Shown here one piece after another: positions 2,618 to 30,802 of a DNA stretch of 34,409 bases (position 1 is its first letter; every line of letters begins with the position of its first letter). The position numbers were made by a program, and so were the translations under genes. The notes under the pieces are model-generated. The model did no database searches, was not told the origin of the DNA, and was given only the letters and a program-made list of their open reading frames with translations. The DNA comes from Candidatus Bathyarchaeota archaeon (GTDB lineage Archaea > Thermoproteota > Bathyarchaeia > Bathyarchaeales > Bathycorpusculaceae): assembly GCA_030626685.1 (NCBI GenBank), contig DAOUTL010000001.1:1-34409 (forward strand). Reading direction: 5' to 3'.

Positions 2618-3421
2618 TCAAGCAAACATTGCCGTAAAATTAATTCTCATCTCATCGATCATTTGTTCTAAAGATGGTGTTGGTTCTGAACTTAGCCTTG
2701 TGAGTCCTATTCGCAGGAATGCTTCCAGAGTCTTGATGATACCTTCGGGAAAGAATTGTTCTACATCATGGAATGTTATTTCTTTGGTCTTACACTTTTT
2801 AATGAAAAATTCTTTGGTTCTTTCAACATTAATATCACCAACCTTCAAAAGCTTCCACACATCGTAGTAATCTCTGATTCTTTTCCTTTCAAGAATCGAC
2901 CTCATCTTCTCCGCCAAGATGTTCTCAAGAGTGTATGTGAGGACGCTAAATTCTGGGTAATCGTATGCTTTGGGAGCTTTAACTTTTCTAACATCACCGA
3001 TGAAGCCTTCTTTCGAAACCTCTATCTTGATCGTGTTCTTGCCTAGCAGACCAGTGTATTGTACCCTAACCTGTAAGTAACTTGGATTTATGAAGGGTTT
3101 GTCTTTGACGTTCAGAAGCAACCCACCACTTGCCTTCTCGACGATACCAGAGAGTTCCTCTATTAATTTAATGGAAATATTTTCCAAGTTAGAACGTTCG
3201 GAGATCGTGAAATCCAAGTCTTCCGAAAGTCTCCAACCCGAAGGAAAGTAAACCTTTGATAGGGCAGTTCCGCCCTTAAAGACGAGTTTATCGGAAAGTG
3301 AACTCGAAGAGATTCCGAAGAGAATCCAGCCAATGGCATAATCTTTTTCTATTAGGTCCAGTGCTAATTTTCTCTCCCTGGATATCCTTCTCAGTTCAGG
3401 TAGCGGAATCATCTTGTCCAC
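2618..3421 (-). CDS. abiEii: AbiEii/AbiGii-family nucleotidyltransferase toxin
   Basis: 267 aa. N-terminal signature IEKDYAIGWIL...LVFKGGTALSKVYF...RLSEDLDFT is typical of DUF1814/AbiEii. Overlaps the upstream partner by 13 nt. Confidence 0.85.
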   Translation of the reverse strand: MDKMIPLPELRRISRERKLALDLIEKDYAIGWILFGISSSSLSDKLVFKGGTALSKVYFPSGWRLSEDLDFTISERSNLENISIKLIEELSGIVEKASGGLLLNVKDKPFINPSYLQVRVQYTGLLGKNTIKIEVSKEGFIGDVRKVKAPKAYDYPEFSVLTYTLENILAEKMRSILERKRIRDYYDVWKLLKVGDINVERTKEFFIKKCKTKEITFHDVEQFFPEGIIKTLEAFLRIGLTRLSSEPTPSLEQMIDEMRINFTAMFA

Positions 3422-4803
3422 TGTTCAGGATCTATTTTTATGTTCACACGTAACTTCCATCTCTCTTTAATCTTACCTCTTTTAGGAAGCTTAGGGTCTA
3501 AGCACGAGTATCCCTTTGAAATTTTAAGTCCAGTCAATAAACCATCGTATTCATGGAGTCCTAGTTTCTCTAACAGGTAGCCAAGTCTTTTTATTATCGT
3601 TCTGTTTCCCATTTTCTCCGCCATGTCCACGATTTTCTTGAAGTCCAAGTTTTCGTGTTCAAAGTAGATGGCCTTCGCAACTTCCTCTATCCCCACACAG
3701 TGTTCGGGATGGTCCAAGCAGTCAACTATTGTCTTTTCTGGAGTTGATATCTTGACAGGGATGTTCTCGATCTTGACCTCGGTGGTGCCGAACATCTTCC
3801 TCTCGGGAACTGTTACAAAGATGAATTCTACATTGAGAATTTTTTTTCTGTTCCTTGGTTTTGTTGTCGTTATGTAGACTGCAGGAGGGGTCTGCTCAGT
3901 GAGTCCGTGATAGTTCAACGCGCTCCAATGGCTTATGTAGTAAGGCCTGACCATATGCGATGCTATCATGAAGCTGTGGACAGTATAACTTCTTGCTCCC
4001 AACTCACCAGCTTCCAAGGGAGCTATCATGTACAATCCCTTCTTTATCTTTAGAATCCAGTTCTTTTTGGAGAGGTTGTACAGAAGACTTTTAGGGTTTT
4101 TATCATATTCTTTGACATCTTCAAGAGTAAAGATTCCTTTACCCCTGTAGCTGAGGTCTGATAGGATTCTCGCCTCTCTTGCAGAAAGACTTTTCCTCCC
4201 CGCTTCTTTTAATTCTACGACTCCTATCTCTTTAGGAGCAATTGGCTCAATTTTAACATCGATCCCGTATTCTTTTTTTAACTTCGGCAATTCATCCCTT
4301 ATTCTTTTTATCTCAGGTATTTTTTCAGCTACTGGCATCAATACAAATGTTTTGCTGTTCTCTGTGGTTAAGTAATAGATTGAACGTGCATATTTCGTTA
4401 ATATCGGGATAACCGTTCTATTCAAAGGCCTTTTTAGCTTGGGGTGGGGAATTTGCGTTAAATCGTCTGTACAAAGAATTCTCTTATATTCGATGTTATA
4501 GAGCCTACATGCTTCCTTTGCCTCTTCTCTCATTTCAGGTGAAAGTACCATACATCTTATCGAGGACGGATCTAACCCCTTTTCCTTGGACAATAAAAAT
4601 CTATATTTGATTACCTGGTCGAAGATGTCAAATGAAACAGGAACGCTCTTTATCTCAATGATCAAATATCTTTTGTTTCTATCCAGAAATAGCAAGTCTA
4701 TCTTAGAATCATTAATCGCTACTTCTTTTCCAATCCTCTCTAACCCTTCCTCTATTAATCCTGGATACTTTGAAAGCACCTCTTCAATAACGCTTTCTTT
4801 CAT
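3409..4803 (-). CDS. AbiEi-like antitoxin/regulator fused to an N-terminal NucS/DUF91-like PD-(D/E)xK nuclease domain
   Basis: 464 aa. The N-terminus LSKYPGLIEEGLERIGKEVAINDSKIDLLFLDRNKRYLIIEIKS...VIKY resembles the DUF91/NucS core. The C-terminal half (FTLEDVKEY...KKGLYMIAPLEAG...YYISHWSALNYHGLTEQ...VYITT) resembles AbiEi. Confidence 0.75.
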   Translation of the reverse strand: MKESVIEEVLSKYPGLIEEGLERIGKEVAINDSKIDLLFLDRNKRYLIIEIKSVPVSFDIFDQVIKYRFLLSKEKGLDPSSIRCMVLSPEMREEAKEACRLYNIEYKRILCTDDLTQIPHPKLKRPLNRTVIPILTKYARSIYYLTTENSKTFVLMPVAEKIPEIKRIRDELPKLKKEYGIDVKIEPIAPKEIGVVELKEAGRKSLSAREARILSDLSYRGKGIFTLEDVKEYDKNPKSLLYNLSKKNWILKIKKGLYMIAPLEAGELGARSYTVHSFMIASHMVRPYYISHWSALNYHGLTEQTPPAVYITTTKPRNRKKILNVEFIFVTVPERKMFGTTEVKIENIPVKISTPEKTIVDCLDHPEHCVGIEEVAKAIYFEHENLDFKKIVDMAEKMGNRTIIKRLGYLLEKLGLHEYDGLLTGLKISKGYSCLDPKLPKRGKIKERWKLRVNIKIDPEQWTR

Positions 4804-16028: not shown

Positions 16029-16107
16029 CCATACACACAGAAACAACACACCCACCCAGACTCGCCACAAACACCAAGCGACAAGACCAAACCAAATGAC
16101 AATCCTT
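16029..16107 (+). repeat. AC-rich intergenic repeat, copy R1
   Basis: The 46 nt at 16029-16074 are identical to 17515-17560. Similarity continues to about 16107. Confidence 0.75.
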
Positions 16108-16280
16108 TACGGTGAAGGAGACGGAATTGTTGGAAAGCGTGTAATAGCATATGCGAGACACATAGAAGTTATGAGAATACACACATCTAAAACCCATAGG
16201 CACAGAGCCCAAGGAGCCAAACTTGACGATGCTGAATGCTACATGGTTAAACCGATTCGATGGAGACAGCGATCTCAAAC

Positions 16281-16326
16281 CCGTGGTCTCCATTAGGACC
16301 GCAGTGTTCAAATCCCACCCCTCGCA
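16281..16326 (+). other. tRNA 3'-end-like fragment (T-loop GTTCAAATCCCAC, acceptor-like CCCTCGC, then A)
   Basis: GTTCAAATC at 16306. No complementary 5' acceptor strand upstream, so it is not an intact tRNA. Confidence 0.45.
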
Positions 16327-17424: not shown

Positions 17425-17598
17425 TTCTCTCCCTTTTTTATTTTCTCCTTTTTTTAAACAAAGACAGCAAATCGTCTAAGCCGCTCACACCACAATCATC
17501 ACGCAAACAATTTTCCATACACACAGAAACAACACACCCACCCAGACTCGCCACAAACACTACAACACAAACACCAAGCGGTAAGACAGGCAATCCTT
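17425..17598 (+). repeat. terminator plus AC-rich repeat, copy R2
   Basis: T-tracts at 17431-17455. AAGACAGCAAATCGTCT...CCGCTCAC block at 17461-17495. A 46-nt exact match to R1 at 17515-17560, then a 14-nt tandem insertion. Confidence 0.75.
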
Positions 17599-18415: not shown

Positions 18416-18430
18416 ACATAACCAAAATCC

Positions 18431-18541
18431 CAAATCTTTTATTCTGCGAAGTTGCAAACGCGTTAAGGTATAAGCCTTACTATGGAAAATTGCAGTCGAA
18501 AGCTTACCCAATACAGCTCCTATGAACAACGCCGCAAATCA
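18431..18541 (+). pseudogene. orphan 3' fragment of a truncated PIN gene (duplicate of 22517-22627)
   Basis: About 90 percent identity over 111 nt. Encodes ...LFCEVANALRYKPYYGKLQSKAYPIQLL. Confidence 0.7.
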
Positions 18542-18559: not shown

Positions 18560-18680
18560 CATCCCTTTTCTTTTTCCCATTTTTTAACGAAAACGAAGAC
18601 AGCAAATCGTCTGAACCGCTCACGCCACAACTTCCTATATGCACAGAAACAAGGCACTCACACAAACTCACATTCACCTT
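18560..18680 (+). repeat. terminator plus AC-rich repeat, copy R3 (diverged)
   Basis: T-tracts, then GAAGACAGCAAATCGTCTGAACCGCTCACGCCACAA at 18603-18638, which matches 17460-17495 with 4 mismatches. Confidence 0.6.
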
Positions 18681-22049: not shown

Positions 22050-22139
22050 CTGTGGAGATCAGACCCCTACTCCCTGCAAAGCGAGCAAGTCCAATCGAGG
22101 AAGCAGGAAGCCATCCCTACTTGTAGGGTGGTAGTTCAC
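22050..22139 (-). repeat. GTGAACTACC junction element, copy X1
   Basis: Plus strand reads GGTAGTTCAC at 22130-22139, preceded by hairpin CCA(T)CCCTAC-TT-GTAGGGTGG. About 90 nt are similar to copy X2. Confidence 0.6.
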
Positions 22140-22183
22140 TTAATAATAATATGTGTAAAGAATATGTAAAGAAGGGGTGTGTA

Positions 22184-22405
22184 ATGGGCAATGTCACTAT
22201 AAGAGTGCCTGAGGAGCTGAAACGTCAGATGAAACGTTTTAAGCATATTAACTGGAGTGAAGTTGCCAGAAGAGCTTTCGAAGATGCCGCCCGTCGAGAA
22301 GAGATGCTGAAAGCTGCTGAGGTCATCAAAAGGTTGCGAATGGAAAGTCAAGCTGAATGGAACGGTGCTGAGGAGATACGTAAATGGCGAAACGCCGCAA
22401 GATAG
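22184..22405 (+). CDS. vapB: RHH antitoxin (VapB-like)
   Basis: MGNVTIRVPEELKRQMKRFKHINWSEVARRAFE. ATG at 22184 is preferred. Confidence 0.8.
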   Translation: MGNVTIRVPEELKRQMKRFKHINWSEVARRAFEDAARREEMLKAAEVIKRLRMESQAEWNGAEEIRKWRNAAR

Positions 22406-22611
22406 TGGTGTTAGACTCCTCAGTTGCGGTTAAGTGGTTCAGCAAAGAGGTAAAATCGGATGAAGCCATCAAGCTCATGGACTCTCACGTGAAAGGCCCC
22501 ATAGAGCTATCAGTCTCAGATCTGTTATTCTGCGAGGTTGCAAACGCATTAAGGTATAAGCCTTACTATGAAAAATTGCAGCCGAAAGCTTACCCAATCC
22601 AGCTCCTATGA
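22384..22611 (+). pseudogene. vapC: truncated PIN-domain toxin gene
   Basis: IVVLDSSVAVKWF...LLFCEVANALRYKP, then unrelated sequence and a stop at 75 aa. The last two PIN acidic motifs are missing. The 3' part is duplicated at 18431-18541. Confidence 0.75.
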
Positions 22612-22936
22612 ACATCACCGGCAATCAGGTATAAGCTTTACACTTCCCTTTCTCTTAGCCTCCATGTATTCCTTGACGGCTTCAACCTCGTCTTTTAAGG
22701 GCTCTTCCAACCCCACAAGCCTTTCCTCAACAAGCTCCTCTAACCTTTCAACTTTTTCACGAACAAGCCCTACGGAAAACAGAAACTATACAACAAAAAG
22801 GTTATGAAAACCAACTTGGAAAGGCTTGCACATTTAATAAAAGTCTGCGGCTTGCTGATGCAAACGAAAGTTTATCTGTTCTGGTCAAAAACCGATTATC
22901 GAAAGTAACGTTTCCAAGCTACAAAAAATGGTATCA

Positions 22937-23048
22937 GGTTCAATGAAAAACTCCCACTAAAGGGAATTGAAAGTAAAGGAATGAAAGGAGAAAAGTGAAT
23001 TGTATACAAAAGTTTCAAACAGAAATCACACACAAAGGGAATTGAAAG
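22937..23048 (+). repeat. CRISPR-repeat-like direct repeat pair (2 x 37 nt, 38-nt spacer)
   Basis: 22937-22973 against 23012-23048. The 3' 15 nt AAAGGGAATTGAAAG are identical and the 5' ends are GGTTCAA and GTTTCAA. Overall identity is 25 of 37. No cas genes in the window. Confidence 0.3.
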
Positions 23049-23098
23049 GTTTGATTCCTTGCGGCAAGGGTTCGCGGGTTCAAATCCCTCGGGCCCGC
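23049..23098 (+). other. degenerate tRNA 3' portion (anticodon-stem-like CCTTG/CAAGG, T-arm, acceptor CGGGCCCG)
   Basis: GGTTCGCGGGTTCAAATCCCTCGGGCCCGCGCA resembles the common archaeal tRNA 3' end GGTCGAGGGTTCAAATCCCTCCGGGCCCGCCA, with indels. There is no 5' half. Confidence 0.55.
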
Positions 23099-23105
23099 GC
23101 ACCTA

Positions 23106-23127
23106 ATCTTCATTGCGCAATGAAGAT
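23106..23127 (+). other. perfect 9-bp hairpin ATCTTCATT-GCGC-AATGAAGAT
   Basis: Read directly. Lies between two tRNA-like fragments. Confidence 0.6.
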
Positions 23128-23142
23128 ACATCGCCAAATAGG

Positions 23143-23163
23143 GTTCAAATCCCACGAAGCCCA
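23143..23163 (+). other. tRNA 3'-end fragment GTTCAAATCCCAC-GAAGCCC-A
   Basis: The first 17 nt are identical to 24166-24182. Confidence 0.5.
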
Positions 23164-23404
23164 TGGTGTTTTCTCGGTTGCCCTAAAAACAATGGGGTTT
23201 TAGATGTTCATTAAGGTTTACTATTGAGAGTTACTCTTTAATCCCTCTAGAACCTAATGAGTGCACATTAAGGCAGACCTTAAAGACTTTTGTCTGTATC
23301 CATGGGTACACCTAGGATTCTAGAGTGACTGTTACATGAAGCAGAAAAAGAAATTAAGATCTATTAGTGTTCATGAATAAGAATAATAGAAGGAGTTGCC
23401 GAGA

Positions 23405-23875
23405 ATGCCTACTAAGAAATATCCTTTCAAAAAAATTGGGGAAAGAATGAAAAAGCTAAAGATAGAGCCTAGTGAACGATATGGATTTGTTGAAAACTCT
23501 GTTTGGTACCCTACTGAAATCTTTGTAGAGGAAGCTCATGAAATAATGCTTAGAGAATATGGAGGTTACACAGGATACGAAACGGGGATTGACTTATTCA
23601 AAGTAATTCTCAAAAAAGCTAAAGAAATAGAAGGTATTTACAAGAAAGCAGCGATCCTTTTGTATGAAATGGCAACAAGCCCTCGCATCTATAAAGATGG
23701 AAACCATAGAACAGCAATTGTGACAACCGAGACTTTTCTAATCATGAATGGGAAAAAAATCTGGACAGAAAATTCACAAGACATATATATATTTATTAAA
23801 GACCTCTTACATTATAGTATTGACGAAATAGCAAAGTGGCTTGAAAATGGACCCCCGAAAAGACCATCCGATTGA
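23405..23875 (+). CDS. doc: Doc (death-on-curing)/Fic-fold toxin homologue with no adjacent antitoxin
   Basis: EEAHEIMLREYGG... and YKDGNHRTAIVTTETFLIMNG align with the P1 Doc HIFNDANKRTA region. ATG at 23405 lies 9 nt after AGGAG. Confidence 0.8.
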   Translation: MPTKKYPFKKIGERMKKLKIEPSERYGFVENSVWYPTEIFVEEAHEIMLREYGGYTGYETGIDLFKVILKKAKEIEGIYKKAAILLYEMATSPRIYKDGNHRTAIVTTETFLIMNGKKIWTENSQDIYIFIKDLLHYSIDEIAKWLENGPPKRPSD

Positions 23876-24023
23876 GATTCTGGAATCAGTAGTGAAGAAA
23901 AGACATGAGTGCCTAAAGAAACTCAATGGTGGAAGCAAGAAAGTCCGCGTCAAATAGTTTTTAACTATGTTTGTTTTAGGCTAACTGTGATTTCTAGCTG
24001 TAAAAAGTGTAGGTAAGGCAACA

Positions 24024-24182
24024 AAAAGTGAAAGGTGGGTTCAAATCTCGCCCTAGAATATGCCTAAATTAAACTACTTTAATTCAGTCATATCAGAGAG
24101 TTCAAATCTCTCCGGGCCCGTCATGTTCACTTTAATCTATAATCATGTGGCACGTGCCACACCGCGTTCAAATCCCACGAAG
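24024..24182 (+). other. cluster of three tRNA T-arm/3'-end-like fragments
   Basis: GTTCAAATC at 24039, 24100 and 24166. 24096-24120 is a perfect T-arm GAGAG-TTCAAAT-CTCTC followed by CGGGCCC-G. Palindrome GTGGCACGTGCCAC at 24147-24160. Confidence 0.5.
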
Positions 24183-24363
24183 GAATTTTAATGTTTTCAA
24201 CCGGTAATTACCTCCAAGTCCTGTCTAACCGTGAACTTTGCAAGTGTAATCTTCTTCCCTGTAGCCCGCGCTATCTGCTCAGCTACCGGCTTCAACGACT
24301 TCACACGCTCTTTATCAGCTCCAACTAAAGGAATCCACGCACCACCGAGTATGCTTTCCCATG

Positions 24364-30133: not shown

Positions 30134-30400
30134 ATGTCCACGCAATTTCAATCAAAGAGTTTCTGGGATTGTTCAAACGTTTCAGTAGAACCAGAAAGTG
30201 AAACTAGCCGATTAGCACAGAACGATGTTGAGTTTCAAAGGCAACCATTGATTAATATCATCTTCGTGCCGAGCTCAAGACTTCTACCTGTCTCAGATGA
30301 CAACAAGTCAAAATACTTTGAAGAGTTTATATTTGGCATTGTTGCAAAGAGGGTTCTTGATAGAAACAAAAAACTATTCGATGAGTTGTCTAAGTACTAG
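30134..30400 (+). CDS. hypothetical protein, candidate antitoxin of the downstream Doc
   Basis: 88 aa. AGGAG lies 12 nt upstream. C-terminus RVLDRNKKLFDELSKY. Ends 12 nt before the doc gene. Confidence 0.4.
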   Translation: MSTQFQSKSFWDCSNVSVEPESETSRLAQNDVEFQRQPLINIIFVPSSRLLPVSDDNKSKYFEEFIFGIVAKRVLDRNKKLFDELSKY

Positions 30401-30412
30401 TCTTGTGGACTT

Positions 30413-30802
30413 ATGTACTTTCTGACAGAAGATCAAATCCTTCGACTTCATGCAACGTTCGATGTGGTCGCCTCTGGCATGCGTTACAAAGGTGCTCTCA
30501 CTGAATGTAGAGAGAAGCCACAAATCGATATTTTTGGATATCAGCCCTACGTTGACATTTATGAAAAGGCAGCGATTTTACTACAATGTATTGTTCAGCA
30601 AACCCCTTTCAATGACGGTAACAAAAGAACGGGTCTCGTGGCATGCTTCACTTTCTTAGAAATCAATGGGTACGTAGTTAAAATAACTGTAGAAGAAGGA
30701 TTATCTTTTGCACTCAAAATCGCTAACAAGGAAGTTAAATTTGCTCAAATCGTTAATTGGCTTAAAAGTAATTCTTACTCAATTACAACATGCATCGTTT
30801 AA
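30413..30802 (+). CDS. doc: Doc (death-on-curing) family toxin
   Basis: 129 aa. AAILLQCIVQQTPFNDGNKRTGLVACFTFLEINGYVV aligns residue for residue with P1 Doc SATYLVATARGHIFNDANKRTALNSALLFLRRNGVQV. Confidence 0.85.
   Translation: MYFLTEDQILRLHATFDVVASGMRYKGALTECREKPQIDIFGYQPYVDIYEKAAILLQCIVQQTPFNDGNKRTGLVACFTFLEINGYVVKITVEEGLSFALKIANKEVKFAQIVNWLKSNSYSITTCIV

Follow-up and report, generated by a model that had tools for sequence, protein, structure and literature searches.

Segments that are flanked by attachment (att) sites, derive from integrative elements and have no integrase of their own are known as cis-mobilizable elements (CIMEs), as in the case of streptococcal ICESt1/CIME, and split or permuted tRNA genes exist as stand-alone pieces in Nanoarchaeum and Caldivirga. 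The integration of mobile elements yields partial tRNA genes (PMC9897764), and mobile elements scatter tRNA fragments in archaeal populations (PMC3293823). Integrases of the SSV family, which target the 3' ends of tRNA genes with the T stem-loop as the proposed core, are encoded in antiparallel orientation to the tRNA and show promiscuity in the choice of tRNA (PMC7253208). Here we analysed a stretch of 34,409 nucleotides from a Candidatus Bathyarchaeota archaeon (contig DAOUTL010000001.1, positions 1 to 34,409; hereafter the window), in which a doc-like gene lies among tRNA-3'-end-like fragments designated F1 to F6 within a large toxin-antitoxin (TA) and defence island. On balance, the fragments are probably att-site remnants of tRNA-integrating elements, with doc now forming an integrase-less mini-element bounded by direct repeats. 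This would be a known kind of genomic scar, namely tRNA-derived att scars in a CIME-like remnant, distinguished here by its density and by an unexplained link to hairpins.

As in the att repeats of the SSV and pT26-2 family with its 'suicidal' integrases and of other tyrosine integrases, where direct repeats of a tRNA 3' end and T stem-loop flank foreign DNA, direct repeats that are in part tRNA-like lie here on both sides of a putatively foreign segment, and in one relative of the locus (L003, see below) the frame of an integrase gene antiparallel to the tRNA extends across the att site. In contrast to that family, the window lacks an intact tRNA and contains neither an integrase nor an int(N) or int(C) part; the family's cores are reported as 44-51 bp, whereas the repeats around doc measure 17 bp, of which 13 nt are tRNA-like, and 1.1 kb of DNA accommodates fragments of at least three tRNA types at intervals of 61-66 nt. 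The likeness to CIMEs lies in the short cargo of doc and a partner open reading frame (ORF), the att-like direct repeats, the lack of a recombinase of its own and the tandem sites, which resemble accretion; the locus differs from CIMEs in being archaeal, in its very short repeats, in its extra unrelated scars and hairpins and in having a mobility that is only putative. Orphan tRNA fragments away from the parent gene and linked to mobile DNA are also described from another uncultivated archaeon, Caldiarchaeum subterraneum, but that case involves one 5' fragment and a 1.8-kb recombinase-encoding element (PMC3293823), compared with several 3' fragments and no recombinase here.

T-loop fragments and their tRNA parentage

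The fragments are marked by the T-loop nonamer GTTCAAATC, of which the window contains exactly six copies, all on the plus strand (at 16306, 23078, 23143, 24039, 24100 and 24166). Shuffling gave an expectation of 0.48 copies (sd 0.64), with none of 100 shuffles giving six, in agreement with an earlier note on this DNA that had pointed out the six plus-strand copies and their rarity by chance. With one mismatch allowed, 16 copies were found against 12.3 expected, which is no enrichment in the window, and the signal is therefore the exact nonamer. All six fragments lie on the strand of doc. Start-to-start distances between nonamers were measured as 65 nt (23078 to 23143) and 66 nt (24100 to 24166), the two spacings already given in the note, with an additional interval of 61 nt between F4 and F5 (24039 to 24100).

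At least two of the fragments derive from tRNAs, a tRNA origin having been established for F5, F1 and F2. F5 (24096..24120, plus strand; GAGAGTTCAAATCTCTCCGGGCCC) corresponds exactly to positions 49-72 of archaeal tRNA-Ile(GAU), being identical at 24/24 positions over 24096-24119, with G rather than A as the discriminator; its T-arm (24096-24112) is perfect, with 5 bp of GAGAG/CTCTC, as had been noted for the right side of doc. The F5 sequence is present in more than 120 metagenome contigs, 39 of which ARAGORN called outright as tRNA-Ile(GAU), while others have intron-containing versions of this gene. F1 (16306..16326, plus strand; GTTCAAATCCCACCCCTCGCA) is an orphan tRNA 3' fragment at the left edge of a VapBC cluster that consists of a T-loop of the tRNA-Leu/Met type, the 3' strand of the T-stem, the 3' strand of the acceptor and A73. 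A genuine tRNA-Met on a viral contig has this 21-mer as its 3' end, and the 21-mer is almost identical to the 3' ends of archaeal tRNA-Leu(GAG).

F2 (23049..23097, plus strand) is the degenerate 3' third of a class II-like tRNA and is made up of a hairpin (CCTTG-CGG-CAAGG), GTTC, a T-arm of GCGGG/CCCTC with one mismatch, and GGGCCCG. It can be aligned to tRNA-Leu(GAG) over the variable arm, the GTTC linker and the T-arm, and also gives a local T-arm match. Because of this alignment the hairpin of F2 is read as a class II variable arm, and its interpretation as an anticodon arm was rejected.

F3 and F6 are the two copies of the repeat that brackets doc. The left copy, F3 (23143..23163, plus strand), consists of GTTCAAATCCCACGAAG followed by CCCA, and the right copy, F6 (24166..24182, plus strand), of GTTCAAATCCCACGAAG alone, truncated relative to F3. 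The outer 17-mer is identical on the two sides (23143-23159 and 24166-24182), as the note had stated, and the likeness extends to 23/27 nt. A 13-mer, GTTCAAATCCCAC, is common to F1, F3 and F6, and F3 and F6 are tRNA-like over these first 13 nt only. The remaining fragment, F4 (24035..24053, plus strand), is T-arm-like, with GTGGG-TTCAAAT-CTCGC (including two G-U pairs) followed by CC and without an acceptor-like tail.

Searches for parent tRNAs in GTDB genomes and in metagenome and viral contigs were successful for F5 and F1 and unsuccessful for F3 and F6. An origin from tRNA 3' ends, as proposed in the earlier note, can accordingly be retained for F5, with its 24/24 match to tRNA-Ile, and for F1 and F2; for F3 and F6 as complete tRNA ends it cannot, the 21-mer being parentless.

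The 5' strand of the T-stem is missing from three of the six fragments (F1, F3 and F6), and several fragments have a sharp 5' boundary at tRNA position 49 or 53 with the nonamer intact, a pattern that points to recombination junctions and not to slow decay of whole genes. We therefore give hardly any credence to in-place decay of a tandem array of complete tRNAs, for instance a virus-borne one. Dense same-strand tRNA arrays do occur in virus contigs, and the fragments share a strand and a regular spacing, but no complete tRNA is as short as 61-66 nt, the perfect nonamer in 6/6 fragments combined with complete loss of the 5' two-thirds and with sharp boundaries is not a neutral-decay pattern, and the doc module would lie inside the array.

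None of the fragments is a functional tRNA, as the note had also held: ARAGORN, run with and without introns on the whole window, found no tRNA genes, Rfam gave no tRNA match on the window even at E <= 10, and no fragment has a 5' acceptor strand. Functional, intron-containing and permuted tRNAs were rejected as candidates, the output of relaxed ARAGORN runs being noise and neither 5' acceptor nor D-arm sequences being present. Within the window, GGGCCCG, GGGCTTC and GCGAGGG never occur in a tRNA-like context that would mark a 5' half, and since the GGGCCCG of F2 has no D-arm behind it, it is unusable as a 5' exon of F5. A cloverleaf-like fold of F4 with F5, with four G-U pairs, no anticodon loop and a z-score of only -2.6, was treated as chance. 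The fragments resemble split and permuted tRNA genes in being stand-alone pieces of tRNA 3' sequence; they differ from them in that the window holds no matching 5' halves, the T-stems of F1, F3 and F6 are incomplete, F5 has the wrong discriminator and there is no leader fit for a bulge-helix-bulge splice site.

It also appears very improbable that the fragments are expressed as tRNA-like RNAs, acting as RNase P or RNase Z signals on the doc mRNA or as decoys or regulators for tRNA-directed toxins. Their shared strand with doc, the richness of the island in PIN toxins and the folding of 23049-23170 and 24030-24125, which is somewhat better than that of shuffled sequence (z = -2.8 and -2.6, respectively), would be in keeping with such a role, but the minus strand folds as well as the plus strand and the folding of 24085-24190 is unremarkable (z = -0.17). 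No Rfam family was matched, and the missing 5' acceptor strand means that no acceptor/T-arm minihelix is available to RNase P, RNase Z or the CCA-adding enzyme. In addition, half of the fragments are without the T-stem 5' strand, and such fragments lie beside doc in no relative.

The doc module and its relatives

The Doc-like gene (23405..23875, plus strand) encodes a protein of 156 amino acids with a putative Fic fold and the non-canonical motif RIYKDGNHR. The match of the protein to the Pfam Fic family is weak, with 17.1 bits (E = 0.01) where the cut-off is 24; a solved Doc-family structure is matched with E = 5e-4, the sequence HIFNDANKR of P1 Doc aligning with RIYKDGNHR, and four more distant homologues have a precomputed match to PF02661. 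The motif used as the criterion for Doc/Fic proteins was HxFx(D/E)GNGRxxR, in Doc HxFxD(A/G)NKR. The family of 17 proteins to which the Doc-like protein belongs carries R/T-[IVM]-[YF]-x-DGNHR, in which DGNHR is invariant and the His position is never occupied by His. With the catalytic His replaced, the chemistry of the family may therefore differ from that of Doc or Fic. No copy of the Doc-like protein was found in viral contigs.

A basic ORF of 36 amino acids (MDPRKDHPIEILESVVKKRHECLKKLNGGSKKVRVK; 23847..23957, plus strand) covers the last 29 nt of doc. Its peptide is conserved in 11/11 loci examined, including one whose Doc is 45% identical, and it is probably a partner or antitoxin of the Doc-like family. 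Because the overlapping ORF is conserved in all of these loci, Doc is not solitary, contrary to its description in the earlier note. A Type III toxin-antitoxin system was rejected as an interpretation of the locus, the units sharing only 9-13 nt and the toxin candidate being Fic-like.

Using blastn, nucleotide homology to eight relatives was found to extend over the two-gene module (23402..23965, plus strand), the flanks being unique to this locus. The relatives carry the module in varied contexts. In L003 it follows an integrase that is antiparallel to a tRNA-Pro(GGG) and has a frame open through the tRNA, the SSV-type 'suicidal' signature (PMC7253208). In L324 a tyrosine integrase of 429 amino acids precedes it by 200 nt, in L005 a tRNA-like 3' fragment is located 1.1 kb upstream of it, and in L201 it is surrounded by housekeeping genes. 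On the strength of these contexts, with integrases in L003 and L324, the doc module is thus typical cargo of integrating elements. The delivery of doc by tRNA-targeted integration that the note had envisaged gains support from the integrases beside the module in L003 and L324 and not from the bracketing F3 and F6, which are tRNA-like over 13 nt only.

L003 also contains (3300-4500) the C-terminal remnant of a second integrase (...DMDGVKLFRKCK*), whose end is 30 nt away from the tRNA-Pro on its opposite side. Two public contigs with the same Doc-like protein (L001 and L002) are identical to the window; L002, an independent assembly from another sample, covers window positions 22100-24094 and ends 2 nt before F5, and this end at 24094 may be either an assembly break at a repeat or a variant junction.

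Proposed integration history, hairpins and CRISPR repeats

Comparison of the composites to the left and right of doc showed that only the tRNA-like parts are shared, while the spacers between fragments are non-homologous, and a recent duplication of the whole composite was ruled out on this ground. The composite direct repeats of the earlier note thus hold for the order of the fragments, A then B on both sides (F2 and F3 on the left, F5 and F6 on the right), and not for the sequence between them; the resulting order, A-B...A-B, is interleaved and not nested as had been suggested for the att scars.

In the history that we favour, tyrosine integrases of mobile elements would have recombined at tRNA genes, either in the T stem-loop or in the 3' end. 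At least three tRNA types (Ile, Leu-like and one with a GGGCCCG acceptor) would be represented among the scars of several such integration events in the TA island of a Thermoproteota/Bathyarchaeia-like archaeon, doc and the 36-amino-acid ORF arriving as the cargo of one such element. A circular element carrying doc, the older scars F4 and F5 and a B-type core may then have recombined through this core with a chromosomal B-type core downstream of the older scar F2. The outcome would be a segment of about 1 kb without an integrase between the 17-bp repeats at 23143-23159 and 24166-24182, with F4 and F5 as passengers, which an integrase supplied in trans could in principle excise as a circle of 1023 bp. 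We infer the order of these events, the nature of F3 and F6 as recombination junctions and any remaining mobility. Promiscuity of the integrases among tRNAs could explain the hybrid cores of F3 and F6 and the sharing of only a generic T-loop. If this is correct, there is nothing extraordinary about the locus except its compactness as a record of recurrent integration at tRNAs; it would show TA modules accumulating in archaeal islands after integrase loss and would serve as a warning for annotation that T-arm fragments can accumulate away from any tRNA gene.

A number of observations weigh against this history. The 17-mer that brackets doc is tRNA-like for 13 nt only, its matches in IMG/VR viral contigs include none inside a called tRNA gene, and the 21-nt form present in F3 has no match in the 185,579 species genomes of GTDB or in IMG/VR. 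Contrary to textbook attL/attR pairs, no member of a repeat pair lies in an intact tRNA gene in the window. A search of the window with the L003 integrase by tblastn revealed neither an integrase nor an int(N) or int(C) fragment. None of the eight relatives, with 300-800 nt of flank available, has T-loop fragments beside doc, and the neighbouring genes for a protein of 115 amino acids and one of 1393 amino acids have no close database homologues, no close relative of the locus being present in the databases. The A-B...A-B order with non-homologous spacers can only be reached in several steps. A simple scar model predicts neither the regular spacing of 61-66 nt nor the strong association of unrelated hairpins with 4/6 fragments, of which those before F3, F5 and F6 are unexplained.

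With respect to recombination genes more generally, Pfam searches of about 50 ORFs in the window gave no integrase, transposase or cas gene, and together with the empty tblastn search this bears out the note's statement that the window has no integrase. A minus-strand integrase remnant was considered for an ORF of 50 codons that runs antisense through F3 and F2 and was rejected, the ORF being too short and tblastn negative; the ORF encodes ...RDLNP..., as does the L003 integrase across the T-loop.

Four of the fragments are preceded by separate hairpins in addition to the one that forms part of F2. The hairpin before F1 has 8 bp (16260-16267 / 16286-16293). Between F2 and F3 there is a perfect palindrome of 22 nt with 11-bp arms (ATCTTCATTGC and GCAATGAAGAT; 23106..23127), which ends 16 nt before the F3 nonamer. 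An imperfect hairpin with 16-nt arms, 88% complementarity and a 4-nt loop (24058..24093) ends 2 nt before the T-stem of F5, and the palindrome GTGGCACGTGCCAC (24148..24161) ends 5 nt before the F6 nonamer. Both palindromes of the earlier note therefore exist, the left one being longer than the 9 bp given there. Of the 31 perfect hairpins of at least 7 bp in the window, 4 have their end 5-16 nt ahead of a nonamer, for which P is ~1e-6, or 2e-4 when the local intergenic background is taken as the reference. The hairpins that precede the fragments are unrelated in sequence to one another. That of F1 may also be a class II variable arm, the resemblance being less clear and involving a smaller inner stem than the one counted.

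This association of unrelated hairpins with 4/6 nonamers raises the question of whether the hairpin, T-arm and tail are working gene-cassette recombination sites of an integron-like kind, with doc as one cassette and the integrase encoded elsewhere, which we regard as unlikely. Two loci in other archaeal contigs are pertinent. In L077 (1075-1831) the gene for a membrane protein of 216 amino acids lies between 3' fragments of the tRNA-Leu(GAG) type that form 26-nt repeats with one difference, and in L089 (4949-5610) an MPG DNA glycosylase gene lies between fragments of the same type. Both are single genes tightly bracketed by and co-oriented with the fragments, both units are located between housekeeping genes, and both genes are absent from syntenic relatives, which have other genes there. 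A TATA-like sequence comes right after the left fragment in L077 and in L089, and the right-hand fragment of L077 has a 9-bp hairpin directly before the T-stem. Against a cassette system, only three or four examples are available and these were found incidentally, and the relatives of L077 and L089, having other genes at those positions, offered no clean empty site. Furthermore, the F2 hairpin, and perhaps less clearly that of F1, is accounted for by a class II variable arm, and the doc modules of the eight relatives are without such sites.

The resemblance to integron attC sites consists in units of one or two genes separated by a variable hairpin and then a short conserved motif starting with GTT. 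The fragments differ from attC sites in having no inverted RYYYAAC...GTTRRRY cores, GTTCAAA not fitting GTTRRRY, in the position of the conserved motif outside the hairpin and in the absence of an IntI-like gene from the window. Searches around doc for attC-like sites, IS200/IS605 ends and terminal inverted repeats gave no inverted cores and no such repeats, and no inverted copies of the nonamer were found near the fragments.

It is decidedly doubtful that uncultivated archaea have a cassette system that mimics the 3' third of tRNAs and inserts single promoter-bearing genes outside tRNA genes. Such a system would be moved by a T-loop-specific integrase encoded elsewhere, and the doc module, L077 and L089 may be candidates for it. 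If true, this would constitute an archaeal tRNA-based counterpart of integron cassettes and a new route of gene capture, and the link between hairpins and fragments, together with the recurrence of single-gene cassettes flanked by tRNA-Leu ends in archaeal contigs, makes it worth pursuing.

A CRISPR remnant (22937..23048, plus strand) is located directly upstream of the fragments on the left side of doc. It contains two 37-nt repeats (22937-22973 and 23012-23048), each ending in GGGAATTGAAAG, with a 38-nt spacer between them, and the second repeat abuts F2. The repeats agree with those of a real array in an IMG/VR contig (L240, 1-470) at 28/37 and 25/37 positions (counted by eye), and the remnant gave weak Rfam CRISPR-DR matches. 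Neither a position-matrix scan nor gapped alignment detected further repeats above background, which means that there is no recognisable array to which the fragments belong as spacers. A decayed array running through the fragments had been considered in view of an apparent period of 75-79 nt between hairpin ends and was rejected, neither repeat search supporting it.

We accordingly see little chance that the fragments are tRNA-derived or off-target spacers in a decayed array continuing from 22937-23048. The two repeats are genuine, the period of the fragments (61-78 nt) is within the range of repeat plus spacer, and their single strand would be explained too. A T-arm with one acceptor strand has been described as a spacer in Thermococcus nautili (PMC9897764), and there, as for F2, CRISPR repeats are adjacent; the present locus differs in having two repeats only, with none flanking F3 to F6. 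On the other side, there is no repeat-like sequence between or after the fragments, the candidates falling within background, the hairpins between the fragments are mutually unrelated, the right-hand array of fragments is 1 kb off, beyond doc, and Pfam revealed no cas gene among the window ORFs.

Fragments in other genomes and the surrounding island

When 185,579 genomes were scanned for pairs of T-loops at a distance of 58-73 nt, 61 loci were returned. In 36 of these 61 (among L010-L068) a tRNA is followed 59-73 nt further on by a repeat of its own sequence from the T-loop to the 3' end, and the spacer often contains a hairpin; these loci span many bacterial and archaeal lineages, and the remaining ones are CRISPR arrays or tandem repeats. 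The spacing range was preset by the search pattern, so the scan only shows that close repeats of tRNA ends occur in many lineages and not that 65 nt is special.

Orphan fragments of the tRNA-Ile and tRNA-Leu types recur in 370 kb of low-GC archaeal contigs, and archaeal virus contigs contain orphan tRNA-Leu ends, in one case 56 nt behind a terminase gene. L100 has an intact tRNA-Ile with a fragment of another tRNA 67 nt beyond it. In L128 (1507-2566) a variant tRNA-Ile and an ORF of 309 amino acids form a 1-kb unit with an orphaned 3' end of the canonical tRNA-Ile; the ORF has no Pfam match and overlaps the 3' end of the variant tRNA on the opposite strand, and the unit may be a minimal integrated element. 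Many archaeal tRNA-Ile genes on contigs of ~52% GC (L079, L086, L087 and L091 among them) seemingly have an intron in the 5' strand of the T-stem (...GGGGTCG[TGAACCCGGACGACGTCCAGTCGAC]AGAGTTCAAATC...), and these were missed by ARAGORN.

The window is essentially one large toxin-antitoxin and defence island. It encodes at least 10 PIN proteins with MazE or ribbon-helix-helix partners, a HEPN/nucleotidyltransferase pair and AbiEi/AbiEii. Its archaeal nature is seen in an ATP-dependent DNA ligase, in a protein with a NucS domain and in named homologues from Thermoproteota, Bathyarchaeia or Thermoprotei bins. The interval 23001-24000, which includes most of the ~1-kb doc segment, has the lowest GC in the window (0.376). 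A second, canonical Fic/DOC gene (30413-30802; 129 amino acids) has a Pfam E of 5.8e-10 and is preceded by an ORF of 88 amino acids without a Pfam match, the two (30134-30802) probably forming a separate antitoxin-Doc pair.

Repeats are also found within the TA cluster. C/A-rich repeats of 40-46 nt lie upstream of three successive VapBC-like pairs (16029-16074, 17515-17560 and 18635-18680; also 17456-17495 / 18591-18630), and a segment of 114 nt is present twice with 89% identity (18428-18541 / 22514-22627). The upstream repeats and the 114-nt duplication therefore suggest that the TA cluster grew in part by duplicating cassettes together with their upstream regions.

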